A stretch of DNA of 64,000 nt, from contig CAWFXA010000001.1 of assembly GCA_963819655.1 (NCBI GenBank), positions 327,155-391,154 on the forward strand, read 5' to 3'. How positions within the stretch are numbered: the stretch's first letter is position 1; every line of letters begins with the position of its first letter. This document shows positions 8,001-54,838 of this stretch, in pieces. This DNA is from an uncultured Chloroflexia bacterium (GTDB lineage: Bacteria > Chloroflexota > Limnocylindria > Limnocylindrales > CSP1-4). The notes beneath the pieces were generated by a model. That model made no database searches and had not been told where the DNA came from. It worked only from the letters and a program-made list of their open reading frames with translations. Made by a program: the position numbers and the translations under genes.

Positions 8001-8825
8001 ATGGAATCATCGACGCTCACCCTGCACACCGCCGATCGGATCGAGCCCTCCACGGCCGCCGTGCCGGTCGGCCCTGGTCTCGACCCCGGATCGGCCAAAC
8101 CGCGGTCCGCCGAGATGCACCCGGGCCCGGGCTTCAGGCTCCGCTACGACATCGACCGGCCGAGCCCGGCGATCCTCGAGCGCCTCGGCCGTTTCGACAC
8201 CCCATCGATCTCGGACCAGCTGAACCGGCTGTTCACGATGTCGGCGGCGATCCAGCTCCAGACAGATCCGCAGCATCGGATCCTCGGGCCGGCCGTCACG
8301 GTGAAGGTGTTCCCCGGCGACAACCTCATGGTCCACAAGAGCCTGGACATCGCCAGGCCCGGCGACATCCTGGTGGTCGACGCGAGCGGCTCCGCGCTGA
8401 CGGCGGTGCTCGGCGACCTCATCTCGACGAAGGCGCGGCACCGCGGCATCGCCGGCGTGGTGATCGACGGCCTGGTGCGCGACCTCCCGGCCATCCAGGC
8501 CCTCGGCGACTTCCCGGTCTTCGCACGCGGCGTCACCCCGATCGGTCCGCTCCACCGCGGACCCGGCGAGGTCAACTTCCCGATCTCGGCCGGAGGCATT
8601 GTGGTCAATCCCGGTGATGTCATCTCCGGCGATCTCAACGGCGTCGTGGTAATCCCGCGCGACGTGCTGCCCGCGATCCTGCAGCGGCTCGAGATCCGAG
8701 AGGCCATCGAGGCCGAGTACCACGCCGCCGTCCAGCGCGGCGACTTCTCCAACGCGTGGGTCGACCAGACCCTCGAGGAGGCCGGCGTCGCGGTCGCTCC
8801 GGACCCGACGATCGGCCTTCGGTGA
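8001..8825 (+). CDS. RraA-family protein (4-hydroxy-4-methyl-2-oxoglutarate aldolase / oxaloacetate decarboxylase-like; regulator of RNase E activity A fold)
   Basis: Family signature GIAGVVIDGLVRD and overall RraA/MenG-like topology. An alternative start at the internal MHPGPGF (~8115) would give 237 aa. The stop overlaps the GTG start of the next gene (GTGA). Confidence 0.8.
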   Translation: MESSTLTLHTADRIEPSTAAVPVGPGLDPGSAKPRSAEMHPGPGFRLRYDIDRPSPAILERLGRFDTPSISDQLNRLFTMSAAIQLQTDPQHRILGPAVTVKVFPGDNLMVHKSLDIARPGDILVVDASGSALTAVLGDLISTKARHRGIAGVVIDGLVRDLPAIQALGDFPVFARGVTPIGPLHRGPGEVNFPISAGGIVVNPGDVISGDLNGVVVIPRDVLPAILQRLEIREAIEAEYHAAVQRGDFSNAWVDQTLEEAGVAVAPDPTIGLR

Positions 8826-10030
8826 GCCTGCGTCACCTGCCGCCGGCCGTCCTTCTGGGCGGCAACGCGAACACGGTCTCGGTCGCGCGAAGCCTGGGCC
8901 GTCGTGGTGTCGACGTCACGGTCTACGGCAACGGCCACCCGCACGTCCGCTACTCGCGGTTCTGTACACGCTACGTGGACGTCGGGCGTGGACCCGACAT
9001 CGGCGATCGCTGGCTACGCCATCTGCTCGACCGGCCACGGGACGCCGTCATCCTCCCGTGCGATGACGATGCGTTGGCAATGCTGGCTCGCAGCCGGAGC
9101 GCGCTGGCCCAAGCCGGCTACAGCCCGTTCGAGGCGCGTGACGATGTCGTCCTCTCGATGCTCGACAAGGCTCGGACCTACGAGCTGGCGGCTGCCGCCG
9201 GCGTCCCGGCACCGTGGTTCCTCCGACTGACCGACGCGGCCTCGGTCGATCGAGCGATCGAGGAGATCGGGTTCCCGAGCGCACTCAAGCCGGTCAGCTC
9301 GCATGCGTTCGCGCGTGTCTACCGCGGGCGCAAGGCGTTCATCGTCAAATCGGCCGACGAGATGCGCCAGCGCAAAGCCGAGACGGCCGAGTACGGGCTC
9401 GCGATGATGGCCATCGAGATCATCCCGGGCCGGGATGACCGCCTGTGCTCCTACTACGCCTACATCGATGAGCACGGGCGGTCGCTGGTCACGCTGACGA
9501 AGCGCAAGATCCGCCAATACCCGACAGGGTTCGGGCTGGGCTCCTTCGAGATCACCGACGAGGCCCCCGATGTCGCCGCGGCCGGTGCGGCCTTCTTCGC
9601 GTCGGTCGGGATCCGTGGCCTTGCGAACGTCGAGTTCAAGCGCGACGACCGCGACGGGACCCTCCGATTGATCGAGTGCAATCACAGGTTCACGGCGTCC
9701 AATGAGCTCGTGCGCGTGGCGGGCGTCGACCTGGCGTGGCTCGCTTATGCCCGGCTGGCCGGCGTGACCCCACCGCCGCTCGATCGATACCGGCCGGGCG
9801 TGACGCTCTGGAACCCATCGCGCGACCTGCGCGGGATCGCGAGCGCGACGCGTCGGGGGCAGACGCGCGTCGACGAATGGCTGCCGGGTCTGCTGCGCCG
9901 CCACGTGCTGCCCGTGTTCCGCTGGGACGACCCGGCTCCGACCATCGCGTATCACGCATCGACCCTCGCGCGCATCCCGGCCAAGGTGGGTTTTCGGGCA
10001 GAGATCGGTCCCGCCGTCTCGGCCTCCTGA
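8822..10030 (+). CDS. ATP-grasp carboxylate-amine ligase (COG3919 / D-aspartate-ligase-like family)
   Basis: ATP-grasp core motifs (SALKPVSSHAFARVYRGRKAFIV, ANVEFKRDDRDGTLRLIECNHRF). The GTG start overlaps the upstream stop. The next gene follows 10 nt downstream. Confidence 0.8.
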   Translation: MSLRHLPPAVLLGGNANTVSVARSLGRRGVDVTVYGNGHPHVRYSRFCTRYVDVGRGPDIGDRWLRHLLDRPRDAVILPCDDDALAMLARSRSALAQAGYSPFEARDDVVLSMLDKARTYELAAAAGVPAPWFLRLTDAASVDRAIEEIGFPSALKPVSSHAFARVYRGRKAFIVKSADEMRQRKAETAEYGLAMMAIEIIPGRDDRLCSYYAYIDEHGRSLVTLTKRKIRQYPTGFGLGSFEITDEAPDVAAAGAAFFASVGIRGLANVEFKRDDRDGTLRLIECNHRFTASNELVRVAGVDLAWLAYARLAGVTPPPLDRYRPGVTLWNPSRDLRGIASATRRGQTRVDEWLPGLLRRHVLPVFRWDDPAPTIAYHASTLARIPAKVGFRAEIGPAVSAS

Positions 10031-10039
10031 GGCGTCCGG

Positions 10040-11167
10040 ATGTCCATCGCGCGGGACGCCGTGCTCCCCTCGCCGCCACGTGTGACGTTCATCCCGGGCG
10101 ATGGCATCGGGCCCGACGTGATGGGCGCGGCGCTGGCCGTGATCGAGGCGTCCGGGGCCACCATAGAGTGGGACGTGCGCCAGGCGGGTGCCGCAGCGGC
10201 CACTGACGGAGGTGAGAGCCTGCCCGACGACGTGGTCGAGGCGATCCGCGCGACGCGGGTCGCGCTGAAGGGCCCGACCGCGACAGCCACCCGCGGCGAA
10301 CGGGCCGTGAGCGTCCGCCTGCGTGCCGCGCTGGACCTCGAGCTCGGCATCCGGCCGGTGCGGAGCTGGCCAGGGGTCGTCGGGGCGGTCAACTCGGTGA
10401 CGTCGTCGAACCTCGACATCATGCTCATCCGGATGCTCGGGGAGGACCTGTACGCCGGCCTCGAGTTCGAAGCTGACGATCCGGCCGCCGTCGATCTCCG
10501 CCGGCTCTGGGCGTCCCGTGGTCGAGCCCTCCCAAAGGACACGGCCTTCTCATTGAAGGTGTTGTCGGACCGGGCGATCGAGCGGTTCGCCCGAGCCGCC
10601 CTGACGCAGGCGCGGATCCATGGCCGGCGGCGCATCACGATCGTCCACAAGGCGACCGTCATGCGGGCGACCGACGGTCGGTTCCGATCGATCGTGGAGG
10701 AGGTGGCGCGCAAGGTCGGGGGGTTCGAGGTCGACGACCGTCTCGTCGACACGGTCTGCCTCGACCTCATCCGTCACCCGGAGCGCTTCGACGTGCTGCT
10801 CGCGCCGGTGATGTACGGCGACATCCTGTCGGACGTGATCGCCGGGCTCGCCGGCGGGCTCGGCCTGGCGCCGGGCGCCAACATCGGGCGGCACGCCGCC
10901 GTCTTCGAGCCGGTCCACGGGACCGCGCCATCGCTCGCCGGACTCGACCGAGCCGACCCCATCGCGGCGATCCTGACGGGCGCCATGCTGCTACGACACC
11001 TCGACCTGCCGGTCGAGGCACAGCGGATCGAGACCGCGGTCCGCTGCACCCTGACGACCGGCAGCGTGCTGACCTATGACCTGGCAGGCGTCCCGCGCGA
11101 CCACGAACGCGCTGCGAGCACCCATGCCATGACCGACGCCGTGATCGCTGCGCTGCCTCCGGGGTGA
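10040..11167 (+). CDS. Isocitrate/isopropylmalate dehydrogenase family beta-decarboxylating dehydrogenase (tartrate/homoisocitrate DH-like)
   Basis: Family signature around MYGDILSDVIAGLAGGLGLAPGANIG, and N-terminal VTFIPGDGIGPDV. The stop overlaps the next gene's GTG (GTGA). Confidence 0.85.
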   Translation: MSIARDAVLPSPPRVTFIPGDGIGPDVMGAALAVIEASGATIEWDVRQAGAAAATDGGESLPDDVVEAIRATRVALKGPTATATRGERAVSVRLRAALDLELGIRPVRSWPGVVGAVNSVTSSNLDIMLIRMLGEDLYAGLEFEADDPAAVDLRRLWASRGRALPKDTAFSLKVLSDRAIERFARAALTQARIHGRRRITIVHKATVMRATDGRFRSIVEEVARKVGGFEVDDRLVDTVCLDLIRHPERFDVLLAPVMYGDILSDVIAGLAGGLGLAPGANIGRHAAVFEPVHGTAPSLAGLDRADPIAAILTGAMLLRHLDLPVEAQRIETAVRCTLTTGSVLTYDLAGVPRDHERAASTHAMTDAVIAALPPG

Positions 11168-13866
11168 ACGACGGGTCGGTCCCCGAGGTCGATGGCGACG
11201 CCACGCGCGAGAGTGCTGCGCACGTCCGCGGCTCCACATTGCTGGTCGTCGGCCGGTTCGTGTCGCTCGGGATCAACTTCGCGACCCAGGTCCTCATCGC
11301 CCGTCACCTCGGCCAGACCGAGTTCGGAGCGTTCGCGCTGGCATTCGCGATCGCGGGCCTCTGCCAGGTGCTCATCACGCTCGGGCTGCATCGGGGTGTT
11401 ACGCGCTTCCTGACCGCCGACCTCGAGCGTGGCGACCACCCGCGGTTCGTCGGGACGATCGTGCTCAACGTCGCCGTCATCGTCGTCCTGGGGGCGATCC
11501 TCGTCGGCCTTGTAGCTGTCGCCCAGCAGGGCCTGACCGCTGCCGGCATCCTGCAGCCTGCCGCGACGGGCCTGCTCCTGATCCTGGTGCTGCTGGCCCC
11601 GATCGACGCCCTCGACGATCTGCTGATCTCGCTGTACGCGATCTTCGACAGCCCACGCTCGATCTTCGTCAGGCGTTACATCCTCGGGCCGGCGTTGCGG
11701 CTCGGCGTGGCTGTGGCCGTGGTCCTCGCGAGCGGCGGGGCGATCGAGCTCGCGGTCGGCTACGTCGCAGCCAGCCTGTTCGGTCTGGCGCTCTACGGCG
11801 CGCTGTTCATCCAGATGCTGATGCGGTCCGGCATCGTGAAGGCGGTGGGCGGCAGGCCGCTCGTCATCCCGGCCCGAGAGGTCATCGGCGCGTCGGTCCC
11901 GCTGCTGTCGACGGATGCCGTGTGGCTGCTCATCAACACGTTCCCGATCTTCGTCCTGACGGCGGCCAGCGGCCTGGCCGACGTCGCGGCATACCAGGTC
12001 ATCCGCCCAGCCGCCGCGCTCAATCTCCTCGTCGCGGCCAGCTTCCACGTCCTCTACCTGCCGCTGGCGACACGTCTGGCGAACCGGCGCGACATCGCTG
12101 GCTCGAACGAGCTGTACTGGCGAACGACGATCTGGGTCGCCGTCCTGACGTTCCCGATCTTCGCGGCCACGTTCGCCCTCGGGCGACCCCTGACGACCTT
12201 CGCGTTCGGGGAGCGTTACGAGGCGTCGGGAATGTACCTGAGCGTCCTCGCCGTCGGCTACATGGTCCACGCGGCGCTTGGCTTCAACGCCACGACACTG
12301 GCCGCGCACGGCTATCACCGAACGGTCGCCATCGCCAACGGGGTGACGGCGGGCATCAGCGTCGTCGCGGCGCTCGTCCTGATCCCGCCGTTCGGCGCGC
12401 TCGGTGCGGCCGTGGCGTCGACCGCGACGTTGTTCGCCCAGAACGCTCTCCTGCAGGTCGGTCTGAAACGGCGCATCGGTATCGCTCTGGTCCACCGGGA
12501 CGCCGTGCGGGTCTACGCGGTCATCGCCCTTGCCGCGGGCACCCTCTTCGCGATCGAATCGTTCGCGTCGCTCGGTCTCTGGACGCTCGCGCTTGCAGCC
12601 GTCGAGGCGGTGGGAGTCCTCTATCTCGCGCGCCACGCCATGCAGGTCACGACGATCTTCCCGGGCATCAACCCCCAGATCATCCGGCTGCTTGCATCGG
12701 CGGGTCCGGCGGGCCGGCGGTTGGCATCTGGTCTCGATCTGCTTCGCTCGATCCGGCCGGACGATGCCGCCCGACGCTTCCGTCAGGCACATCGATGGGC
12801 CGCGCAGGACGGGGTCGCGCGTGCTGCGATCTACCGGTCGATCTGGATGGAGGCAGGTCGCGCCATCGGGGCGGACGTCACGGAGGTCGCGCGCGGTACG
12901 TTCGAGCTCCGCGCGGGCCCGCGCCGAGCGATCGTCACCGACCACCTCCTGCGCCTCGACTCGGATGCTGCCCTCGGCCGCGCGATCGACAAGCCGGCCG
13001 TCAGCCGGATGCTCCGGGCAGAGGGCCTCCCGGCCCCCGCCCATCTGGCGTTCTCGTTCGCCGATTTCGGCGCGGCCGTCGCGTTCCTCGCGGCGGCTCC
13101 CGGGCCGTGCGTGGTCAAGCCGGCGCACGGCCGCACGGGGTCTGGCGTCACGACCAACGTCCGGACGCCCGAGGACCTGCTTCGTGCCGTCGTTCGGGCC
13201 GGCGCCGACAGTGACGATCTGCTCATCGAGCACCAGCTCGACGGTGCGGTCTACCGGCTGCTCTTCCTCGACGGGCAGCTCCTGGATGTCCTCGAACGGA
13301 GGCCACCCGGCGCCGTCGGTGATGGACGATCGAGGATCGGCTCGCTGATCGCGGCGGAGAACGAGCGTCGGCTGGGGGCCGCTGGTCGCGTCGGCCTGTC
13401 GTTGCTCAAGGTGGATCTGGATTGCCTGCTGACGCTGGCCGGAGCCGGTATGGACCTGCGCTCCGTGCCGCCGGCGGGCACGGTCGTCGTGGTCAAGACC
13501 GCGACGAACCAGAACGGGGCGCTCGAGAATCGCTCCGTCCTCCACGCCGTGGGCGCCGATCTGGTCGAGGAATCACGGCGGGCGGTCGAGCTCGTCGGGC
13601 TCAGGCTCGCAGGGGTGGACGTCGTGACGCTGGATCCCGTAGCTCCGCTGGCTGGCAGCGGCGGTGCGATCCTCGAGGTGAACGGCTCGCCGGGCATCCA
13701 CTACCACTACCTGGTCCACCCCGACAGCCCCCGCCGGCCCGTGGCGATCCCGATCATCGAGGCACTGCTCGACCTTGGGCCGGGTCCGTCGGTCGCACGT
13801 CCGGAGGTCGATCGGGCAGCCACGGGTTCCGCGTCGCGCACGCGCGAGCCGGGCACGGCCTCGTAG
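11164..13866 (+). CDS. Fusion protein: N-terminal Wzx/MOP-superfamily polysaccharide/oligosaccharide flippase-like membrane domain (~500 aa, ~12-14 TM) plus C-terminal cyanophycin-synthetase-N-domain-like ATP-grasp domain (~350 aa)
   Basis: The N-terminal half is multi-TM with PST/MOP-like features (VVGRFVSLGINFATQVLIARHLG...). The C-terminal half carries ATP-grasp motifs (CVVKPAHGRTGSGVT, ILEVNGSPGIHYHY) and a CphA-N-like arrangement. Confidence 0.8.
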   Translation: MNDGSVPEVDGDATRESAAHVRGSTLLVVGRFVSLGINFATQVLIARHLGQTEFGAFALAFAIAGLCQVLITLGLHRGVTRFLTADLERGDHPRFVGTIVLNVAVIVVLGAILVGLVAVAQQGLTAAGILQPAATGLLLILVLLAPIDALDDLLISLYAIFDSPRSIFVRRYILGPALRLGVAVAVVLASGGAIELAVGYVAASLFGLALYGALFIQMLMRSGIVKAVGGRPLVIPAREVIGASVPLLSTDAVWLLINTFPIFVLTAASGLADVAAYQVIRPAAALNLLVAASFHVLYLPLATRLANRRDIAGSNELYWRTTIWVAVLTFPIFAATFALGRPLTTFAFGERYEASGMYLSVLAVGYMVHAALGFNATTLAAHGYHRTVAIANGVTAGISVVAALVLIPPFGALGAAVASTATLFAQNALLQVGLKRRIGIALVHRDAVRVYAVIALAAGTLFAIESFASLGLWTLALAAVEAVGVLYLARHAMQVTTIFPGINPQIIRLLASAGPAGRRLASGLDLLRSIRPDDAARRFRQAHRWAAQDGVARAAIYRSIWMEAGRAIGADVTEVARGTFELRAGPRRAIVTDHLLRLDSDAALGRAIDKPAVSRMLRAEGLPAPAHLAFSFADFGAAVAFLAAAPGPCVVKPAHGRTGSGVTTNVRTPEDLLRAVVRAGADSDDLLIEHQLDGAVYRLLFLDGQLLDVLERRPPGAVGDGRSRIGSLIAAENERRLGAAGRVGLSLLKVDLDCLLTLAGAGMDLRSVPPAGTVVVVKTATNQNGALENRSVLHAVGADLVEESRRAVELVGLRLAGVDVVTLDPVAPLAGSGGAILEVNGSPGIHYHYLVHPDSPRRPVAIPIIEALLDLGPGPSVARPEVDRAATGSASRTREPGTAS

Positions 13867-13977
13867 CCGTGGTCGACCCTGAAGGCGTTTTGACACGCTC
13901 TCTGTGCACCCGGACACGTCACGGTCTTTCTCGAGACGGTAGGGTGGTGTCCCCGACCCAGTGTGAGAAGGAGTCCC

Positions 13978-14409
13978 ATGTCTCGCCTGACCCGTTGGCT
14001 CGCGCCGACAACGACAGCCCGCGCCCATTGCGACCTCCCCTGCGGCGTCTACGACCCCGAGCAGGCGCGCATCGAGGCCGAGTCCTGCCACAGGATCAAC
14101 GAGAAGTACGCCGCCAACCAGGATGCCACCTTCCGGACCCGCGCGGTGGCGATCAAGGAGAACCGGGCCGACCTGGTCAAGCACCACCTCGACGTCCTGT
14201 GGCACGACTATTTCAAGCCGGAGCACCTGGAGGCCGTGCCGAACCTGCACGAGCTGTTCTGGAACGCGACCAAGCAGGTGTCGAAGGTCAAGGCATCGAC
14301 CGACGCCGCCGACTCGAAGGCGCTGCTCGACATGATCGACGAGATCGACGCCGCGTGGAAGAAGACCGGCGGCGAAGAGAAGACCCGCGTCGCGGGCCGG
14401 CCTTCCTGA
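13978..14409 (+). CDS. sodN: Nickel superoxide dismutase precursor
   Basis: The Ni-hook HCDLPCGVYDP sits immediately after a 16-aa propeptide MSRLTRWLAPTTTARA. Strong RBS GAAGGAG 7 nt upstream of the ATG. A possible TTGACA -35 hexamer lies ~85 nt upstream. Confidence 0.9.
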   Translation: MSRLTRWLAPTTTARAHCDLPCGVYDPEQARIEAESCHRINEKYAANQDATFRTRAVAIKENRADLVKHHLDVLWHDYFKPEHLEAVPNLHELFWNATKQVSKVKASTDAADSKALLDMIDEIDAAWKKTGGEEKTRVAGRPS

Positions 14410-14420
14410 TCTCCACCGAG

Positions 14421-14909
14421 ATGCGAATCCCGAGGCCCCGCCGGTCGGCGGGGCCTCGTCGTACCGAGTCGCTCCGGCATCGGCTGCGCGGTCCGTGGCG
14501 GATCGCGGTCATGCAGGCGAGCATGGAGCCCGCGATCCGCGAGGGCGACTGGCTGCTGGTCGACCCCACCACGACGCGCTGGCCCCGGCGTGGCTCGGTC
14601 GTGGCATTTCACGAACCCGACGGCGGCGTGTTGTCGATCAAGCGCGTGGCCGGCACGCCCGGCGATCGGGTGCCGTTCCGCGACGGCTACATCGAGTTGG
14701 CCGACGACGAGGCCTGGCTCGTATCGGACGCGGACGCAGCGGTTGCCGCCGAGGCGGGCCTCGGCGAGCCGGTCGACTCCAACCGCTATGGACCGGTGCC
14801 GGTCGCGCTCCTCGTGGGCAGGGTCTGGTTCCGCTACGGCCCGCTGCGCCGAATCGGGCGGCCCGGACCTTCGAGCCGTGGACGAACCGGACCTCAGACG
14901 GTACGGTGA
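14421..14909 (+). CDS. sodX: NiSOD maturation protease SodX (S26 signal-peptidase-like)
   Basis: Begins 11 nt after the sodN stop. S26 motifs SMEPAIREGD (catalytic Ser), GSVVAF and SIKRVAGTPGDRV. Confidence 0.8.
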   Translation: MRIPRPRRSAGPRRTESLRHRLRGPWRIAVMQASMEPAIREGDWLLVDPTTTRWPRRGSVVAFHEPDGGVLSIKRVAGTPGDRVPFRDGYIELADDEAWLVSDADAAVAAEAGLGEPVDSNRYGPVPVALLVGRVWFRYGPLRRIGRPGPSSRGRTGPQTVR

Positions 14910-36037: not shown

Positions 36038-37876
36038 TTACGTTACGAGGACGAGGGCGTCGACTGCGATCGCGACGAACAGCAGCGACAGGTAGCTGAT
36101 CGAGTAGCGGTAGAGACTGATCGCCCCCTGGGTCGATGCCTCCTCGGACGATCCACGCCGCCACAGGGCGTACGCCTGCCAGATGAACACCGCTCCCAGG
36201 CCCACGGCGGCTCCGAGATAGATGAGACCCATCCGCGCGACGGGCCACAGGACGAGCGAGATCGCGACCATGAGCAGGGTGTACAGCCCGATCTGACGGG
36301 TCGTCTCGGGGATGCCCCGGACGACGGGCAGCATCGGCACACCCGCAGCGGCGTAGTCCTTGCGAATGCGCAGCGACAGCGCCCAGAAGTGGGGCGGCGT
36401 CCAGTAGAACACCAGCGCGAAGAGGATCAACGCCGGGATCCCGACGTCGCCGGTGACGGCCGCCCAGCCGATGACGGGTGGAAGCGCCCCGGCGGCGCCG
36501 CCGATGACGATGTTCTGGGGTGTCGATCGCTTGAGCAGCATGGTGTAGACGACGACGTAGAAGGCGATGGCCAGAAGCGTGAGGAACGCCGCGAGGAGGT
36601 TGATCGTCCAGGCCATCAGCACGAACGAGATGACGCCAAGGACGACTCCGAAGATCACGGCGTTCTCGGGCTCGACCTGGTGGGCCGGCAATGGTCGTCG
36701 CCTGGTGCGGGTCATGAGCGAGTCGATGTCGCGGTCGAGATAGCAGTTGATGGCGTTGGCGCTCCCCGCCGCGAGCGTGCCGCCGATGAGCGTCCAGGCG
36801 ACAGTCCAACCCCAGTCGCCCCAGTCGATGCCGGGCACCCAGCGGGTGGCGAGCACCATCGCGGGCACGGTCGTGACGAGCAGCAGCTCGATGATCCGCG
36901 GCTTGGTCAATGCGATGTAGGCGCGGATGCGGTCGCCGGTCGTCGGTGGGACGGCTGTCCCCGCTTCGGGCTCGCGCAGGCCGCCGGTGCGGACGGTGCG
37001 GGCCAAGTAGTAGCTCGTGACGGTGAGCCCCACCAGCGTCGCGAGGATCAGGGCACCGAGCGCAAGGTGCAACGTCTGAGTCCAGGCCGACAGTCGAGTC
37101 AGCACCTGCAGCCCGCCGATCGCGACCTGGATCGCGAACAGCAGCGCCGCGCCGACAGCCAGCCTGACGATCGCTGGCTCGTCTCGCTGGGTTCGCCAGG
37201 CGACGATCGCGAGGGCGACGACGATGGCACCGACGACTGCCGCCACCCATCGATGCAGGACATGGGCCGAGGTGACCTCGGTCAGCGGCGGGACGAGCGA
37301 CCCGTTCATCAGGGGCCAATCCGGGAAGACCAACGCGGTGTCGGTCGCGGTGACGTGGGACCCGAAGAGCAGCAGGGCGAACGTCGCCAGCGTCGCGAAT
37401 GCCGCGAGCAGAGTGAACCGCTGGCTACCGCCCCAGCCGCCGACACGGGCCGGGAAACTGGCACGGACCGTGACGTACACCAGCAGTGCCACCAGCAGCA
37501 TCGCCGCGGCCAGGTGCGCGGTGACCGACTCCCCGCTGTTCCCGAGGCGGACCGTCTCGCGTCCGAGCCAGGCCTGGAACCCGACGAGGACCACGGCACC
37601 GAGCGTCGGCCAGAGCAGCGACCGACGGTCGCGATGGTCGACCCAGGCGAGCACCGCCAGGGCCAGGATCTCGAAGCCGATGATCGCCGCGACGGTTCGA
37701 TGGATCCATTCGATCCAGGCCTTCGGATCGTCGAGCGGCGGGAACAGCTGCCCGTGGCACAACGGCCAGTCCGGACAGCCGAGTCCAGAATCGGTGGCGC
37801 GGACGATGACCCCGATCGTCACGAGCAGGATGGCCGTCCCGAGCGTGGTCGCGGCGAGCTTCTGGAAGCGGGTCAC
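36038..37876 (-). CDS. ctaAB: Fused haem A synthase (CtaA/COX15, N-terminal ~300 aa) and haem O synthase / protohaem IX farnesyltransferase (CtaB, C-terminal ~300 aa)
   Basis: CtaA motifs CPDWPLCHG and DWPLMNG with His-containing helices. CtaB motifs YIALTKPRI, NCYLDRDID and YWTPPHFWAL. A single 612-aa ORF with no internal stop. Confidence 0.8.
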   Translation of the reverse strand: MTRFQKLAATTLGTAILLVTIGVIVRATDSGLGCPDWPLCHGQLFPPLDDPKAWIEWIHRTVAAIIGFEILALAVLAWVDHRDRRSLLWPTLGAVVLVGFQAWLGRETVRLGNSGESVTAHLAAAMLLVALLVYVTVRASFPARVGGWGGSQRFTLLAAFATLATFALLLFGSHVTATDTALVFPDWPLMNGSLVPPLTEVTSAHVLHRWVAAVVGAIVVALAIVAWRTQRDEPAIVRLAVGAALLFAIQVAIGGLQVLTRLSAWTQTLHLALGALILATLVGLTVTSYYLARTVRTGGLREPEAGTAVPPTTGDRIRAYIALTKPRIIELLLVTTVPAMVLATRWVPGIDWGDWGWTVAWTLIGGTLAAGSANAINCYLDRDIDSLMTRTRRRPLPAHQVEPENAVIFGVVLGVISFVLMAWTINLLAAFLTLLAIAFYVVVYTMLLKRSTPQNIVIGGAAGALPPVIGWAAVTGDVGIPALILFALVFYWTPPHFWALSLRIRKDYAAAGVPMLPVVRGIPETTRQIGLYTLLMVAISLVLWPVARMGLIYLGAAVGLGAVFIWQAYALWRRGSSEEASTQGAISLYRYSISYLSLLFVAIAVDALVLVT

Positions 37877-37972
37877 CTGATCTCCTGGGGCGCTGGGACG
37901 AGGAGCACGGGCATTCTAGCGCGAGGCAGGCCGCCGACTGCCCCGAACGGGCGCCTCGGCTACGCTTCCGGC

Positions 37973-51239: not shown

Positions 51240-51719
51240 GTGCGTGTCCGGATGGATGGCGTATACCGACTGAGCGTCGCGATCCTCGGCGACGAGGCCG
51301 ATGCGCGCGATGCCGCCCAGGACACGTTCATCACGGCGTGGCGGCAGATCCGAGCCGTGCGCGATCCGGGCAAGTTCGACGCGTGGCTCCAGCGCGTGGC
51401 GGTCAACGCGGCGCGGATGACGCATCGCTCGCGGCGACGTCGTGGCGTCCGCGAGATCCCGCTAAGCCGGCTCGGAGAGGCGCCGACCTCCGGGCCGTCT
51501 GTCGAGCTGGCGGACACCGATGGCCGCGTGCTCGATACCGCGATGCGGGCCCTCGAGATCGACCAGCGATCGATCCTCGTCCTGCACCACCTCGAGGGCC
51601 GATCGATCGTTGAGCTGGCGGCGATCCTCGATGTCCCGACGGGGACCGTGAAGTCTCGTCTGCACGCCGCTCGGCGGGCGCTCCAAGCGGCGATCGACGC
51701 CGAAGCGATCGATCGATGA
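51240..51719 (+). CDS. ECF sigma factor, paralogue of the 4038-4601 gene; N-terminus unresolved
   Basis: Regions 2-4 are clear (DAAQDTFITAWRQIRAVRD; LHHLEGRSIVELAAILDVPTGTVKSRLHAAR). The conserved N-terminal LVERARNGDLDAFEEIV is encoded upstream of the first in-frame start codon. The only upstream ATG (51139) is in another frame. Confidence 0.75.
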   Translation: MRVRMDGVYRLSVAILGDEADARDAAQDTFITAWRQIRAVRDPGKFDAWLQRVAVNAARMTHRSRRRRGVREIPLSRLGEAPTSGPSVELADTDGRVLDTAMRALEIDQRSILVLHHLEGRSIVELAAILDVPTGTVKSRLHAARRALQAAIDAEAIDR

Positions 51720-54700
51720 CGTCTCCGATCGCTCCGCGCGAGCCTTGGGACGACCGACGGCTGGCGGCGGCGTTCACGGCCCGTGCCGCGAAGACCCGGA
51801 CGCCCAACGAGCTGGTCGGGGATGTCGTGGCGCGCGTGCGGACCGAGGATCCGCCGATGCCCGTGTGGCGCCGGTGGCTGCCAGCCGCCGCGGTCGTGGT
51901 CCTCGCGCTCGGCGTGGTCGCGGGTGGGGTCGCGTTGTCGGGCGACGTTCGCGGCCAAGGTCTGTTCCGAGAAGGCCCGAGGGCCGACCTGAAGACGCTC
52001 GCAACGGGCGAGTTCGCCTTCGATTATCCAGCCGCATGGCACGGATACGACGCGTCGGCTGCGGGCAGCGGAATCTCGTCGGTCGCCGTGCTTGGCACGC
52101 AATCGGTGGAGCGGCGCTGCGGCAACGAGCGGCATGTCGACCTCAACTGCGTCTACGAGCAACGCCTCGAGGCAGGGCAGATCCGTCTGTTCGTCGGGAC
52201 CGGCGCCTATCGAGGCCAGACGATCGAAGACCGGGCGCCCATCGAGAACGGGACTAGCTCTCGGGTCCGGGTGGGAGGCATGCCGGCCATCTTCGACGAG
52301 TTCGACGCTCGACCGGACTCCTTCTACGGTGAAGACACGCTGATCCATTGGGAGATCGCACAGCCCGGGTCGGCCGGCACGAACGTCGTCCGCCTCGAGG
52401 CGATGCTCAGAGAGCCTGGCGTCACTGAGGGCCGAAGGCAGCTCGAGGCGTTGGTCGCGAGCTTCCGCTTCACGAACGGCCCCGACCCGTCCCCGCCGCC
52501 GACACCCGAGCCGACGCCGACCGCGACTCCGCCACGCCTCGCCGACCTGCGAGTGATGACTGTGGAGGAGCTGATCACCGCCACGGAGTCGCCGACGCCG
52601 GAGGAGGTCATCGTCCGCGGCTGGCTGGGACGCTCGAATGCCATCTTCGACTGCAACATCGAACCCGACCCGCATCCGCTGATCCCGCGTTGCGAGGAAT
52701 TCGGCCTGTCCCTGTTTCAGGATCCGCCGTTCGTCGAGCGCGGAACCCTCGAGCCTAGCTTGCCTCATGTCGTGCCCATGCTGCGGATCGACGCCCACGC
52801 GGACGTACCAGCCATGCCGGGAATCGCTGTGGAGGTCTTGGCAGTGGGCCACCTCCTCGACCACCGCTGGACGACGTGTCCGGAGGCCCAGCAGGCCGAC
52901 TGCAAGGCGCGCTTCGTGATCGATCGGGTGGTCGCCGCCGACCAGCCATTGTGGGACGACCTTCCGACTCCGTGGGCGAGCCCGGATGGCTTGCCCGTGA
53001 GTGGGCCGTCCGAGGCGGTCGGGGTCCTGTCCTCCATCGTCGGTGGTGTGACTGTCGTGTCGATCGGCGTCGCCGACGCCGATGCTCTCCGATCGATCGA
53101 GTGGCAGACGCGCGCCAAGCCGGATCTGCAGACGTCGTGGGTGATCCGCGCCCTCATCGGAAGGGACGCCGAGCCGATCGCGCGAACGTTCCTGGTCGGC
53201 GACGAGGGCCACTCGACGGTGCTCGAGGTGACCGAGACGGGCCTCGTCGACTTGATCGGCCAGCCCGCGTCCGCCCCGCCGACCGAGGTGCTCGGCCTCC
53301 CGGTCATCTCCGTCGAGGAGGCGATCGCGATCCGCGATGCCGGCCGCGACGACCGCGAGATCGCGGTCCGTGGCTGGTTCCCGCCGTCGAGGTCACTCCG
53401 CTGCGCCTACCCAAGCCCCCCGATCACGTTCTTCCTAGAGCCGTATTGCCAGGACGGATTCTCGGTGCTCATGGCAGGTCCGGAGACCTTGGCCACCGGC
53501 CTGCCTGGAGGACCCCATATATCGGTGGACCTCCATGACCTTGAAATGGCCTGGTATCCCACGGCCGACTCAGTCGAAATGGTGGCGATCGGCCACTTCG
53601 ACGACCGGCGCTCGAACTGGTGTGATGCGTCTCGGGTCGACGCGTGTCGTGACCGCTTGGTCGTCGATCAGGTCGCGTGGGCGGCGGGCGCGGCGCAGCC
53701 GCTGAGCGTCGTCATGAGGACAGGGACGGGCGATCCGGCGTTTGGTCCCGTCGACGCCGCGATCACCGCCACGACTGAGGCCGCGATCCTGTCATCGGCT
53801 GCGTATCGAGCGTGGGAACTCATGGAGATCGAGCCGTCCTTGCGCGATGGGCGGCCCGGCATCACCGACGAGCCGATCCTGTGGAGCGTTCAGGTCCTGG
53901 AGGACGAGCGCGCCGCTACCTACGTCGTGGTCGATGGAACCGATCGGGTCTATCGCGTGGAGACGGACGGACAGACGGTCCAAGTCGGTGGCACGCCGCT
54001 CGAAGATCCGGCGCGCTCGTGGCCGCCAGAGGGTGTCCTGGACGTGCCGATGCCGGAAGGTGGTACGGGCCTCACACCCAAGGCTGGCGTCATCGACCGG
54101 AGCGGGTTGCTCGTGGAGGCACGAGCCGCAGGCGAGGCAGATCCGGGTCGGCCCATCACCGAGCTGGACCCCGGGGAGATGGCGATCGTGCAGGCGGCGC
54201 CGGATACGGTCGTCGCCTACTGGAACGGCTCGCTGTGCGACGATCGGTTCGTCCTGACCCTTTACGGTCGCGGTCCATCCGAGGCGCCCGATCGACTCGA
54301 GTTGCGCGGCGAGCGCGCCGATCTGTGCCGCCTGGCCCTCGTCCGCTACGGGATCCGGCTCCGCTTCAGCCAGCCAGTCGACGCGGCCTCCATCCGCGGC
54401 TGGGACCGTGTCGGCACACCGTTCGAGGCATTCCCGCCCGTCGACTCCACGGTCGTCTTCCTCCCGAAGGACGGCGGGTTCGAGCTTCCCAAGGTACGTG
54501 CGGCGCTGATCGACCTGAGCGGCCGGGTCACTGCCGTGCGTGCGATCGGGCCAGATGACCCGAGAGTGCTGGACCTCGAAGCCCAAGGGAAGGTCGTCTG
54601 GATTCGTGACCGGCAGCTCGTCGGGCGCTACCACCTCTACTGGACCGGCGGCATCTGCGACGGCGACTCGGTGGTGACGATCGACGCGACGTTGTCGACG

Positions 54701-54838
54701 GTCAGCGTCCACGCGACGCGGCAGGAGCCGTGTGATCTCACGGGCGTTGAGCGCCGCTTGGTGATCGACGTCGACGGCGCCCTGGACCCCAACGCCATCG
54801 AGACGATCTATACCGAGACCGTCACCGGCGCCTCATAA
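51716..54838 (+). CDS. Anti-sigma factor (1040 aa): N-terminal anti-sigma domain, one TM helix, large Cys-containing repeat ectodomain
   Basis: ATGA overlap with the sigma gene. The N-terminal 55 aa are paralogous to the anti-sigma at 4598. TM helix LPAAAVVVLALGVVAGGVAL. Internal ~130-aa repeat (aa ~276-410 versus ~524-655). Confidence 0.7.
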   Translation: MTSPIAPREPWDDRRLAAAFTARAAKTRTPNELVGDVVARVRTEDPPMPVWRRWLPAAAVVVLALGVVAGGVALSGDVRGQGLFREGPRADLKTLATGEFAFDYPAAWHGYDASAAGSGISSVAVLGTQSVERRCGNERHVDLNCVYEQRLEAGQIRLFVGTGAYRGQTIEDRAPIENGTSSRVRVGGMPAIFDEFDARPDSFYGEDTLIHWEIAQPGSAGTNVVRLEAMLREPGVTEGRRQLEALVASFRFTNGPDPSPPPTPEPTPTATPPRLADLRVMTVEELITATESPTPEEVIVRGWLGRSNAIFDCNIEPDPHPLIPRCEEFGLSLFQDPPFVERGTLEPSLPHVVPMLRIDAHADVPAMPGIAVEVLAVGHLLDHRWTTCPEAQQADCKARFVIDRVVAADQPLWDDLPTPWASPDGLPVSGPSEAVGVLSSIVGGVTVVSIGVADADALRSIEWQTRAKPDLQTSWVIRALIGRDAEPIARTFLVGDEGHSTVLEVTETGLVDLIGQPASAPPTEVLGLPVISVEEAIAIRDAGRDDREIAVRGWFPPSRSLRCAYPSPPITFFLEPYCQDGFSVLMAGPETLATGLPGGPHISVDLHDLEMAWYPTADSVEMVAIGHFDDRRSNWCDASRVDACRDRLVVDQVAWAAGAAQPLSVVMRTGTGDPAFGPVDAAITATTEAAILSSAAYRAWELMEIEPSLRDGRPGITDEPILWSVQVLEDERAATYVVVDGTDRVYRVETDGQTVQVGGTPLEDPARSWPPEGVLDVPMPEGGTGLTPKAGVIDRSGLLVEARAAGEADPGRPITELDPGEMAIVQAAPDTVVAYWNGSLCDDRFVLTLYGRGPSEAPDRLELRGERADLCRLALVRYGIRLRFSQPVDAASIRGWDRVGTPFEAFPPVDSTVVFLPKDGGFELPKVRAALIDLSGRVTAVRAIGPDDPRVLDLEAQGKVVWIRDRQLVGRYHLYWTGGICDGDSVVTIDATLSTVSVHATRQEPCDLTGVERRLVIDVDGALDPNAIETIYTETVTGAS

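Follow-up and report, generated by a model that had tools for sequence, protein, structure and literature searches.

A predicted Wzx-like flippase and a CphA-related ATP-grasp ligase are encoded by a single gene in Limnocylindria-like Chloroflexota

The described membrane proteins closest to the one reported here are the flippases WzxE/Wzx and MurJ, with which its transport domain shares the Polysacc_synt profile, the fold, 14 transmembrane (TM) helices and a predicted N-in/C-in topology. Unlike them, it bears a cytoplasmic enzyme domain of ~400 aa, and the window (the whole 64,000-nucleotide stretch of DNA that we analysed) has no adjoining Wzy or glycosyltransferase genes. Mycobacterial MviN/MurJ reportedly bears a C-terminal cytoplasmic pseudokinase domain, and four representatives of the fusion's own flippase family have a C-terminal APH/kinase-like domain. 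These too are MOP flippases with an extra C-terminal cytoplasmic domain; theirs, however, is regulatory or kinase-like, whereas that of the fusion is a predicted biosynthetic ligase. The best counterpart of this ligase is the G domain of CphA1 and CphA2, which extends the polymer by joining Asp to its C-terminal carboxylate and shares with our ligase the ATP, Mg and acyl-phosphate residues and the equivalents of R309, R323 and N394 (PMC9427784). In contrast to CphA, the fusion has neither an N domain nor a Mur-ligase M domain, its G-omega loop is three residues shorter, and its ATP-grasp module, joined to a membrane transporter, is paired with a second ATP-grasp. ATP-grasp amide ligases are also found in glycan loci. 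Pyl couples 2-oxoglutarate to a UDP-4-amino sugar (PMC8987622 ref. 100; PMC11257628), and Pyl and Cj1438 are described as adding a non-sugar acid or amine to a surface-glycan precursor (PMC8987622 ref. 100; PMC11257628; PMC11800379), as is predicted for our ligase; glucuronamides occur in the C. jejuni capsule (PMC11800379). Pyl and Cj1438 are soluble and each acts alone, whereas here there are two ligases, one of them fused to a flippase. Asl of Enterococcus and Lactococcus, likewise an ATP-grasp, attaches an acidic C4 amino acid to a cell-envelope precursor amine via beta-aspartyl-phosphate (PMC4155827). Its name, 'D-aspartate ligase', is the automatic JGI label of homologues of the second ligase (grasp1), not of the fused domain, and the context here is not peptidoglycan synthesis.

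Within the window, the fusion gene and its accessory set form a four-gene operon (8001-13866), with the following features (AF2, AlphaFold2).

8001..8825, + strand: RraA-like protein of the HMG/CHA aldolase/oxaloacetate decarboxylase type, operon gene 1 (Pfam RraA-like, E 1.5e-45).
8822..10030, + strand: grasp1, a putative 402-aa ATP-grasp carboxylate-amine ligase (weak Pfam/NCBIfam ATP-grasp matches, AF2 fold).
10040..11167, + strand: Iso_dh, isocitrate/homoisocitrate-dehydrogenase-like (Pfam Iso_dh, E 1.7e-84).
11164..13866, stop codon included, + strand: fusion gene, flippase plus ATP-grasp (ORF, GC3, Pfam, NCBIfam, homologues, AF2).
11164..12630, + strand: flippase domain, aa 1-489, 14 TM helices, MOP superfamily, Polysacc_synt/Wzx-like (Pfam PF01943 and PF13440, AF2, Foldseek).
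12676..13788, + strand: grasp2 module, aa ~505-875 (alignment of standalone homologues, sequence and fold matches to the CphA1/CphA2 G domain).
13111..13149, + strand: VVKPAHGRTGSGV, aa 650-662, with the ATP alpha-phosphate lysine K652 and a glycine-rich lid loop (TeCphA1 alignment, conservation).
13669..13710, + strand: ILEVNGSPGIHYHY, aa 836-849, with Mg2+ ligands E838 and N840, oxyanion G844 and H846-x-H848-Y849 (TeCphA1 alignment, conservation).
13789..13863, + strand: disordered C-terminal tail, aa 876-900 (pLDDT <50).

The four genes of the operon are translationally coupled. Grasp1 most likely begins with the GTG at 8822, which overlaps the RraA stop (GTGA) and is placed by 402-aa homologues; Iso_dh and the fusion gene overlap in the same way, stop on start (also GTGA). 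The best solved relative of the RraA-like protein is 3NOJ, a 4-carboxy-4-hydroxy-2-oxoadipate aldolase/oxaloacetate decarboxylase (E 1.3e-30), and that of Iso_dh is the NAD-IDH 6LKY (E 9e-73). The AF2 model of grasp1 (pLDDT 90.5) has a three-domain ATP-grasp fold resembling biotin carboxylase, PurK, RizA and 2PN1, and BLASTP found no sequence relationship between grasp1 and grasp2 (E 0.48). A LysM protein is encoded upstream in the window.

We find that the fusion is a genuine single gene, in which a flippase is joined to a ligase that is usually a separate enzyme. An earlier, sequence-only reading had proposed one reading frame without an internal stop, and this held: the ORF encodes 900 aa from a GTG start with zero internal stops. 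GC3 in its frame stays at 0.72-0.94 in all 150-nt blocks from start to stop and shifts abruptly outside the ORF; a hidden frameshift is therefore excluded. The long antisense ORF at 11074-13545 (- strand) was rejected as a high-GC artefact. A search for the same fusion elsewhere, as that reading had suggested, recovered 17 independent protein clusters from different metagenomes (drawn from ENA, JGI, NCBI and Logan; 874-917 aa, 51-92% identity) with a conserved junction, and this recurrence excludes an assembly error. AlphaFold2 also gave a confident model of the whole chain (mean pLDDT 91.9, pTM 0.83), continuous through the junction between flippase and ATP-grasp. Our literature search found no paper describing the fusion, although homologues already have a two-part name in the automatic JGI annotation. 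The ligase is no isolated novelty but belongs to a large standalone family with fixed partner enzymes.

As had been proposed, the first ~500 aa form a flippase-type membrane domain. Pfam places aa 21-297 in Polysacc_synt (PF01943, 38.8 bits against a cut-off of 28.2), and PF13440 also matches the domain (25.7, cut-off 23). In Foldseek searches with the AF2 model, target-normalised TM-scores were 0.78-0.80 for WzxE (9g9n/9g9p) and 0.75 for MurJ (6nc6). We therefore assign the domain, from profile and model, to the Polysacc_synt/Wzx type of the MOP superfamily, with translocation of an undecaprenyl-PP-linked oligosaccharide as its predicted role. The model has 14 TM helices, and the loops hold 19 Lys and Arg residues inside compared with 4 outside. 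Because these features and the WzxE/MurJ fold (termini cytoplasmic) agree, an N-in/C-in topology is supported, with both ends of the fusion protein, and hence the ligase, predicted to be cytoplasmic. An ATP-dependent domain has to be in the cytoplasm. The proposal of ligation at the cytoplasmic face is thus supported as to the location of the ligase; ligation onto a lipid-linked substrate is plausible from genomic context. Elsewhere, members of this flippase family have polysaccharide deacetylase, Wzy_C and APH-like domains as fusion partners.

The ligase half consists of two long N-terminal helices (aa 502-568) and an ATP-grasp core (aa 569-875). Standalone homologues of ~380 aa align from fusion residues 503-517 to ~870, that is, over the whole module, and are 43-51% identical to aa 521-900 over ~92%. 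The NCBIfam cyanophycin-synthetase model TIGR02068 matches aa 580-869 with its positions 184-471 (E 4.8e-43) at 147 bits against a cut-off of 850, covering the G domain only. The CphA1/CphA2 G domain is also the best sequence and fold match (phmmer E 5e-28; Foldseek E ~1e-15); the fold matches GshF and Ddl as well. The earlier call of a complete, CphA-related ATP-grasp was right, but the part present is the central, Asp-adding G domain; the primer-binding domain at the N terminus of CphA is missing. Two names were rejected: cyanophycin synthetase (CphA1), on the low TIGR02068 score and the missing N and M domains and residues, and D-Ala-D-Ala ligase, the second half of the JGI name (NF002378, 26 bits against a cut-off of 243, aa 607-715 only).

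Both quoted motifs, VVKPAHGRTGSGV and ILEVNGSPGIHYHY, were found. Aligned with TeCphA1, K610, K652, R698, D819, E838 and N840 correspond to K220, K261, R309, D431, E450 and N452; together with G844 they are kept in 16-17 of the 17 fused and 32-34 of the 34 standalone proteins (position 838 in the fused proteins is 13 E and 3 D). R712 and N782, whose CphA1 equivalents R323 and N394 hold the incoming Asp by its beta-carboxylate (PMC9427784), are largely kept (fused, 16/17 each; standalone, 22/34 and 27/34). Three cyanophycin contacts are replaced, E215 by G605, H267 by T658 (within VVKPAHGRTGSGV) and R458 by H846; in CphA1 they contact the primer Arg side chain, stabilise the acyl-phosphate and bind the Asp alpha-carboxylate, respectively (PMC9427784). 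Standalone members are, respectively, variable, mostly Gly and mostly His at these positions. Fused and standalone proteins alike keep the family-specific residues H846, H848 and Y849. From its residues, the fused ATP-grasp is predicted to be catalytically competent. Neither weakness foreseen by the sequence-only reading, an assembly error or missing ATP-binding residues, materialised. Whole-module homology, the H-x-H-Y after the EVN Mg site and the presence of grasp1 and RraA-like genes in the operon identify the domain, at the level of sequence, as a member of an uncharacterised family of CphA-G-like ligases, grasp2.

The large grasp2 family consists of standalone ligases of ~380 aa, encoded in polysaccharide loci of the Wzx/Wzy type in Actinomycetota, Bacteroidota/Ignavibacteria, Planctomycetota and others. 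Among the 54 loci that span 15 kb or more, tblastn placed grasp2 together with grasp1 in 53, with an RraA-like gene in 43 and with a dehydrogenase, either Iso_dh or NAD_binding_2, in 28. The dehydrogenase is interchangeable: clustering of ORFs from 88 sources (87 loci and the window) gave Iso_dh in 23, NAD_binding_2 in 21 and Ldh_2 in 16, the latter two standing in for Iso_dh. At one locus (L071), ComA and ComB replace aldolase and dehydrogenase; the ComA/ComB product is sulfolactate, a malate analogue. At another (L002), a UDP-glucose dehydrogenase is inserted in the operon. Neighbours of standalone grasp2 include Bac_transf, Wzy_C, Wzz/BY-kinase, glycosyltransferases, polysaccharide deacetylases and FemAB-like GNATs, and in one protein (P0376) grasp2 is fused to a GT2 glycosyltransferase. 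Grasp2 belongs to a conserved module, made up of an HMG/CHA-type aldolase, a hydroxy- or oxo-acid dehydrogenase and the two ligases, that is tied to glycan-assembly genes.

The fusion has a single origin, in a Limnocylindria-like lineage of Chloroflexota, with later loss in some relatives. Among 1.84 billion protein representatives it makes up one cluster, and its grasp2 domains group as one clade inside the family. One relative (L003) has the fusion with no RraA, grasp1 or Iso_dh within 10 kb; another (L004) has all three partners and a flippase without grasp2. Two flippase-only orthologues (L005, L006) lie in housekeeping-like surroundings, with parA, rpoD and dnaG nearby, and not in polysaccharide loci. 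The search for split versions as adjacent genes, also suggested by the sequence-only reading, found them in Gaiellaceae and in the cultured Blastococcus goldschmidtiae. In L071/L072, 63 bp separate the end of a flippase gene from the grasp2 gene that follows it on the same strand; in Blastococcus (L030) a flippase orthologue, Iso_dh, grasp1, RraA and grasp2 lie within 7 kb, adjoining Wzy_C and GT4. A context of Wzy, priming transferase and glycosyltransferase genes is seen for the L030 orthologue and the grasp2-adjacent flippase of L071, but not among the window ORFs scanned or for L005/L006.

On balance, and by a modest margin of confidence, we favour a bifunctional membrane protein in which a Wzx-like flippase and a cytoplasmic C-terminal ligase serve a module for decorating surface glycans. 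The aldolase and dehydrogenase would supply an acidic non-sugar block, a C4 or C5 di-acid resembling malate, oxaloacetate, 2-oxoglutarate or aspartate. Grasp1 would attach this block to a sugar amine on a lipid-linked (or nucleotide-linked) precursor, and grasp2, acting like the CphA G domain, would phosphorylate a free side-chain carboxylate and then add a further amino-acid-like unit. Tethered to the flippase in the Chloroflexota lineage, this last step would take place at the membrane face, on or beside the lipid-linked unit awaiting export. Chemistry like that of Pyl fits, because the operon has an isocitrate-dehydrogenase-like gene, a type of enzyme whose product is 2-oxoglutarate, and an HMG/CHA aldolase, a type that handles substituted 2-oxoglutarates. 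We infer the substrates, the order of steps and the coupling of ligation to flipping; most likely an amino-acid or acidic unit is ligated onto a lipid-linked glycan at the flippase on the cytoplasmic face. Glycan decoration is weakened as an explanation by the absence of assembly genes among the window ORFs scanned, the housekeeping-like surroundings of L005 and L006 and partners that are not strictly co-inherited (L003, L004).

The same translational coupling, and the lack of any glycosyltransferase, priming transferase or polymerase among the ORFs scanned across the 64-kb window, would also suit a soluble pathway making an acidic pseudopeptide (a chelator, osmolyte or signal), which the MOP domain would export in MATE-like fashion with no lipid-linked glycan involved. 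MATE exporters of drugs and metabolites are in the MOP superfamily too, some relatives of the fusion have weak MatE matches, and the nearest characterised ligases, which in the NCBIfam search include NAGGN synthetase and GshF ATP-grasps, yield soluble peptides. We nevertheless regard this as unlikely: the Polysacc_synt profile recognises the domain, the solved fold most like it is that of the lipid III flippase WzxE, grasp2 and its partners lie among Bac_transf, Wzy_C, glycosyltransferases and deacetylases in all other phyla, and the GT2-grasp2 fusion of P0376 points the same way.

Less probable still is a lipid II flippase serving peptidoglycan, whose ligase would modify the stem peptide or build a cross-bridge as Asl does (D-Asp to L-Lys). 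The 'D-aspartate ligase' label of grasp1 homologues, the established chemistry of Asl (PMC4155827), the MurJ-like fold with 14 TM helices (TM-score 0.75), weak precomputed MurJ Pfam matches in a few fusion relatives, the upstream LysM protein and flippase-only orthologues near parA, rpoD and dnaG speak for it. Against this, the window protein has no match to PF03023 (MurJ/MviN) at E<=0.01 and is structurally closer to WzxE; no mur or fts genes adjoin the fusion gene among the window ORFs scanned; standalone grasp2 lies beside Wzy_C, Bac_transf and BY-kinase and not dcw or mur genes; and close relatives have lost the ATP-grasp (L004), which would be unlikely for an essential cell-wall step.

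We give little credence to a synthase-exporter, in which the ATP-grasp would iteratively polymerise an Asp- or malate-like monomer to a cyanophycin-like polyamide extruded by the membrane domain. The nearest characterised relative of the ATP-grasp, the CphA1/CphA2 G domain, does belong to a polymerase, and the chain-end carboxylate residue R309 (R698) and the Asp beta-carboxylate residues R712 and N782 are kept; but the primer-anchoring N domain and the M domain are absent, E215, H267 and R458 are lost, the score for the CphA model is 147 bits against a cut-off of 850, a second ligase is nearly always present and the loci are of glycan type. We also know of no polypeptide export by MOP proteins. 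That two neighbouring genes were merged by assembly or sequencing error, a general caution for high-GC sequence that is probably metagenome-derived, has a negligible chance given continuous GC3, 17 independent clusters with a conserved junction and a model confident across it.

Under the favoured reading of glycan decoration, a flippase is joined to a polysaccharide-cluster ligase, and therefore the surface polymer probably gains an acidic side group during export. More tentatively, the five components (aldolase, interchangeable dehydrogenase, two unrelated ligases and dedicated Wzx-like flippase) may constitute an undescribed, phylum-spanning pathway that would build acidic non-sugar side chains, of di-acid or amino-acid type, on a lipid-linked glycan. 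In Limnocylindria-like Chloroflexota, where the flippase itself carries the final ligase, ligation might then gate export. If true, such gating would be a 'finish-then-flip' quality control, which no MOP flippase is known to have.

Four closely spaced genes, with the fusion in last place, form the operon in the window:

8001-8825, RraA-like protein, first gene of the operon
8822 (most likely start, a GTG overlapping the RraA stop as GTGA), grasp1, a 402-aa ATP-grasp protein
10040-11167, Iso_dh-family dehydrogenase
11164-13866 (+), fusion of a Wzx-type flippase with the ATP-grasp domain grasp2; its GTG start overlaps the Iso_dh stop as GTGA

The fusion ORF lies exactly where the sequence-only reading had placed it and comprises 900 codons with zero internal stops. 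At the window's G+C content of ~70%, chance alone produces long ORFs on all strands, and we therefore examined codon-position composition. Over the whole ORF, every 150-nt block has a GC3 of 0.72-0.94 in the fusion frame, and beyond the ORF the pattern is different; these blocks give no sign of a frameshift or of an erroneous joining of two genes. The same architecture occurs in 17 independent protein clusters of 874-917 aa with 51-92% identity (ENA, JGI, NCBI and Logan). An assembly error that hides a stop between the two halves, which the first reading had named as a refutation, is thus excluded as the origin of the fusion. An 823-aa antisense ORF over the gene, 11074-13545 (-), was dismissed as a high-GC artefact by its Arg/Asp/Glu-rich composition and GC3 pattern.

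Scans for promoters and terminators around the operon returned nothing above shuffled expectation. Directly 3' of the fusion lies a Ni-superoxide dismutase gene (SodN, 13963-14409; N-terminal motif HCDLPCGVY after a leader), followed by an apparent S26-type maturation peptidase, SodX (~14480-14909, in the frame of ORF 13422-14909), an order that is syntenic in locus L001, and then by unrelated genes. Elsewhere, the window encodes a single 625-aa protein with COX15/CtaA (heme A synthase) and UbiA/CtaB (heme O synthase) domains (36038-37915, -) and a 1074-aa ORF with coding-type GC3 and zero Pfam matches (51614-54838, +).

An AlphaFold2 model of the fusion, built from an 80-sequence alignment, is confident over the whole chain (mean pLDDT 91.9, pTM 0.83), with disorder only at aa 1-10 and 876-900. 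The first ~500 aa had been read as a flippase-type membrane domain of 12-14 helices, and this stands: aa 1-489 form 14 transmembrane helices in the model, and PF01943 (Polysacc_synt) matches aa 21-297 above the Pfam gathering score. The best membrane-protein fold match is the lipid III flippase WzxE (Foldseek TM-score 0.78-0.80 on target), followed by MurJ (0.75). For a 14-helix, N-in/C-in topology, the loops carry 19 Lys and Arg residues inside versus 4 outside, which places the C-terminal ATP-grasp domain on the cytoplasmic side in the predicted topology. An ATP-using enzyme must be cytoplasmic.

In other organisms, representatives of the flippase family carry varied extra domains: a C-terminal APH/kinase-like domain on four relatives and, in others, a C-terminal Wzy_C polymerase, an N-terminal polysaccharide deacetylase, N-terminal pentapeptide repeats or an AAA domain (P0269, P0288, P0353, P0344, P0331, P0317, P0256, P0320, P0334). 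The family is, in this sense, a general fusion hub. As candidates for further enzyme fusions, the long flippase ORFs close to grasp2 in L079 and L034 were rejected, their extensions being only low-complexity Pro/Ala-rich tails. At L080:5843-8359, a GT4 glycosyltransferase (aa 19-372) and a flippase-like membrane domain share a single 839-aa ORF, which may be a true fusion or an in-frame read-through of two genes.

In the model, aa ~505-875 form two long helices and then an ATP-grasp core. The best match to this half is the CphA1/CphA2 G domain (Foldseek E ~1e-15, phmmer E 5e-28). Positions 184-471 of the NCBIfam cyanophycin-synthetase model align to fusion aa 580-869 (E 4.8e-43), with NAGGN-synthetase and GshF ATP-grasp modules as the next matches. 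The original description of the last ~350 aa as a CphA-like ATP-grasp therefore holds for the Asp-adding G domain and fails for the N domain. We transferred the functional residues of Trichodesmium CphA1 to the fusion by alignment.

Functional residues of CphA1 (roles as defined in PMC9427784) and their counterparts in the fusion
ATP phosphates: CphA1 K220, K261; fusion K610, K652
Acceptor carboxylate/acyl-phosphate held: CphA1 R309; fusion R698
Mg2+ ligands: CphA1 D431, E450, N452; fusion D819, E838, N840
Oxyanion: CphA1 G456; fusion G844
Beta-carboxylate of incoming Asp bound: CphA1 R323, N394; fusion R712, N782
Primer Arg side chain: CphA1 E215; fusion G605 (changed)
Acyl-phosphate stabilisation: CphA1 H267; fusion T658 (changed)
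Asp alpha-carboxylate: CphA1 R458; fusion H846 (changed)

The ATP-binding and catalytic residues are thus in place, and almost all of the 17 fused and 34 standalone homologues examined keep the catalytic positions, so that the fused ATP-grasp looks active, with a CphA-G-like route from carboxylate through acyl-phosphate to amide. Outlier residues at conserved positions may come from one fusion homologue, P0019, whose tblastn match breaks into two frames near the C-terminus (L003:12397-12399); it may be a decaying copy or reflect a sequencing error. The G-omega loop is three residues shorter than in CphA1, the N and M domains of CphA are absent, and the fusion scores 147 bits against a family cut-off of 850 bits for cyanophycin synthetase. 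Judged by these features, the enzyme is not a cyanophycin synthetase.

The fusion itself is rare. Among 1.84 billion 50%-identity representatives, searched exhaustively with phmmer, only one has both domains (P0008). The nearest named flippase homologues come from Chloroflexota and Candidatus Limnocylindrales, and only these homologues place the fusion lineage, putatively, in Chloroflexota/Limnocylindria. In a neighbor-joining tree of grasp2 domains, the 18 fused sequences all fall into a single clade within the standalone proteins, and fused and flippase-only forms are interleaved in the flippase tree. A flippase-only relative in L004 is 74% identical and occupies the same syntenic slot between Iso_dh and SodN, with no ATP-grasp remnant. 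Together, these patterns fit a single fusion event with later losses. No grasp2 was found by tblastn within 10 kb in L004, L005 or L006; two genes tried as split ATP-grasps, one of 312 aa that overlaps the stop of the L005 flippase and one of 318 aa in L006, have no similarity to it. Strict co-inheritance of the partners does not hold in this lineage: L003 has the fusion with RraA, grasp1 and Iso_dh all missing within 10 kb, and L004 has these three with grasp2 missing. L002, a relative with 54% identity, has the complete operon with a UDP-glucose/GDP-mannose dehydrogenase gene inserted between grasp1 and Iso_dh (L002:7359-8825), which hints at a uronic-acid sugar in the pathway.

Searching with fusion aa 521-900 alone recovered a large family of standalone 360-400-aa grasp2 proteins, 43-51% identical over ~92% of the query, the two N-terminal helices included. 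We took 80 grasp2 loci from species-representative genomes. Most are from Solirubrobacterales, Thermoleophilia, Gaiellales and Acidimicrobiia; others are from the cultured Blastococcus goldschmidtiae DSM 46792, Ignavibacteria, Chlorobiaceae, Chitinophagales, Planctomycetota, a deltaproteobacterium, KSB1 and Calditrichia. For the 54 loci that reach 15 kb or more, partners were counted by tblastn, with proteins of the window as queries. Grasp1 is present in 53/54 and an RraA-like protein in 43/54, followed by a ~330-aa protein without an assigned family (27/54), Bac_transf (16/54), Iso_dh (15/54) and NAD_binding_2 (13/54). Clustering of all ORFs without preset queries added recurrent GT4 and GT2 glycosyltransferases, cytoplasmic polysaccharide deacetylases (27 and 9 loci), Wzy_C proteins (20), BY-kinase/Wzz (19), FemAB-like GNATs (16), Ldh_2 dehydrogenases (16) and Polysacc_synt flippases (11). 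Individual loci look like classic Wzx/Wzy polysaccharide clusters. The core forms one operon, RraA-grasp2-grasp1-Ldh_2-~330-aa protein, in Ignavibacteria, Chlorobi and Chitinophagales, where a deacetylase, FemAB-like GNATs and GT4s flank it. By these counts and contexts, grasp2 belongs to a conserved accessory module that surface-glycan loci carry in at least six phyla.

The ~330-aa protein, here called unkHxD, adjoins grasp1/grasp2 in 37 loci (L048:5512-6498 and 36 homologues, for example L008:11179-12210) and is absent from the window. It has no Pfam match and no significant PDB sequence match; its invariant H-K-D...H residues recall the Fe(II)/2-oxoglutarate oxygenase triad, and a PqqD-like match at its C-terminus is non-significant (E 0.6). 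Separately, the 721-aa P0376 joins an N-terminal GT2 glycosyltransferase to a grasp2 homologue (aa 339-708).

Flippase and grasp2 are also linked outside the fusion. A MOP flippase recognized by the family HMM lies at most 10 kb from grasp2 in 15/55 long loci. The split, adjacent-gene version sought since the first reading exists in two Gaiellaceae loci (L071 and L072), where 63 bp separate the end of a Polysacc_synt flippase gene from grasp2, which follows on the same strand. A stretch of 7 kb in Blastococcus (L030) holds a close flippase orthologue (540 bits to the family HMM) together with Iso_dh, grasp1, RraA and grasp2, adjoining Wzy_C, GT4 and two further ATP-grasp genes. These arrangements argue that flippase and grasp2 belong together. 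The whole unfused Blastococcus set (L030 627-14802) includes a PHP phosphatase and four ATP-grasp genes in total.

Three other readings are disfavoured. A self-contained small-molecule pathway with a MATE-like exporter would suit the window, where no glycosyltransferase, priming transferase or polymerase was found among the ORFs scanned across its 64 kb, but the glycan-type contexts in other phyla and the WzxE-like fold speak against it. A peptidoglycan flippase with a stem-peptide ligase could account for the JGI automatic label of grasp1 homologues ('D-aspartate ligase') and the housekeeping context of L005 and L006; against this, there is no MurJ profile match, contexts contain Wzy, Bac_transf and BY-kinase, and the ligase has been lost repeatedly. 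Against a cyanophycin-like polymer synthase-exporter stand the absence of the N and M domains and the loss of the primer contacts.

The partner enzymes point to the supply of a small acidic building block. The window's RraA-like protein has its closest relative in the Pseudomonas HMG/CHA aldolase/oxaloacetate decarboxylase (3NOJ, E 1e-30) and is nearer to it than to short RNase-E regulators. Such aldolases form or split 4-substituted 2-oxoglutarates and also decarboxylate oxaloacetate. The window's dehydrogenase is closest to NAD-isocitrate and homoisocitrate dehydrogenases. Iso_dh, Ldh_2 and NAD_binding_2, interchangeable as the module dehydrogenase, act on 2-hydroxy/2-oxo acids such as malate, isocitrate and sulfolactate. 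ComA and ComB make (R)-sulfolactate, the sulfonate analogue of malate. In L071, ComB (2-phosphosulfolactate phosphatase) and ComA (phosphosulfolactate synthase), at L071:3543-4247 and L071:5469-6272 respectively, replace the RraA-like protein and dehydrogenase of other loci inside a Wzx/Wzy locus and adjoin ATP-grasp ligases, which suggests a sulfolactate-decorated glycan. Grasp1 has no detectable similarity to the fused ATP-grasp (BLASTP E 0.48) and zero sequence matches to solved structures. Its model is a generic three-domain ATP-grasp like biotin carboxylase, PurK, RizA and 2PN1, and the fold search returned only such generic neighbours, without a substrate clue. The fused grasp2, in turn, retains both CphA1 contacts to the Asp beta-carboxylate (R712, N782). 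D-aspartate ligase, the automatic JGI label of grasp1 homologues, is an ATP-grasp that acylates the amine of a wall precursor through beta-aspartyl-phosphate (PMC4155827). Glycan precursors decorated in this way have direct precedents: a 2014 study, according to the passages citing it in PMC8987622 and PMC11257628, describes an ATP-grasp decorating a glycan precursor with such an acid, and glucuronamides of the C. jejuni capsule are made by ATP-grasp (PMC11800379).

Our best reading is a decoration by grasp1 and then grasp2, with the last step at the flippase. Cytoplasmic deacetylases, frequent in the loci, would expose sugar amines, grasp1 would link a putative C4/C5 di-acid to such an amine, and grasp2 would activate the remaining carboxylate and add a further, putative amino-acid-like unit. 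In the window's lineage, the grasp2 step would be held at the flippase, on its cytoplasmic face, and this flippase would export the lipid-linked unit once finished. In soil Actinomycetota, Chloroflexota, Bacteroidota and Planctomycetota, the module probably attaches an acidic peptide-like substituent to surface polysaccharides.

Glycans decorated by ATP-grasp enzymes are known in principle, and so are MOP flippases with additional cytoplasmic domains. Neither the fusion nor the module is described in the literature searched; the 2009 amidoligase survey of Iyer et al., the likeliest prior account, lies outside it and may mention them. The fusion has a narrow distribution and is a moderate surprise, and the conserved, uncharacterised module is the more valuable lead. 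Since the cultured B. goldschmidtiae has an unfused version, the question is experimentally tractable. Our findings draw attention to a widespread enzyme set of two ATP-grasp ligases, an RraA-type aldolase and a dehydrogenase. They bear on how Wzx-type flippases pick completed repeat units and on where late non-sugar decorations join: a ligase fused to a flippase would mean that, at least here, the last cytoplasmic modification takes place at the transporter itself.
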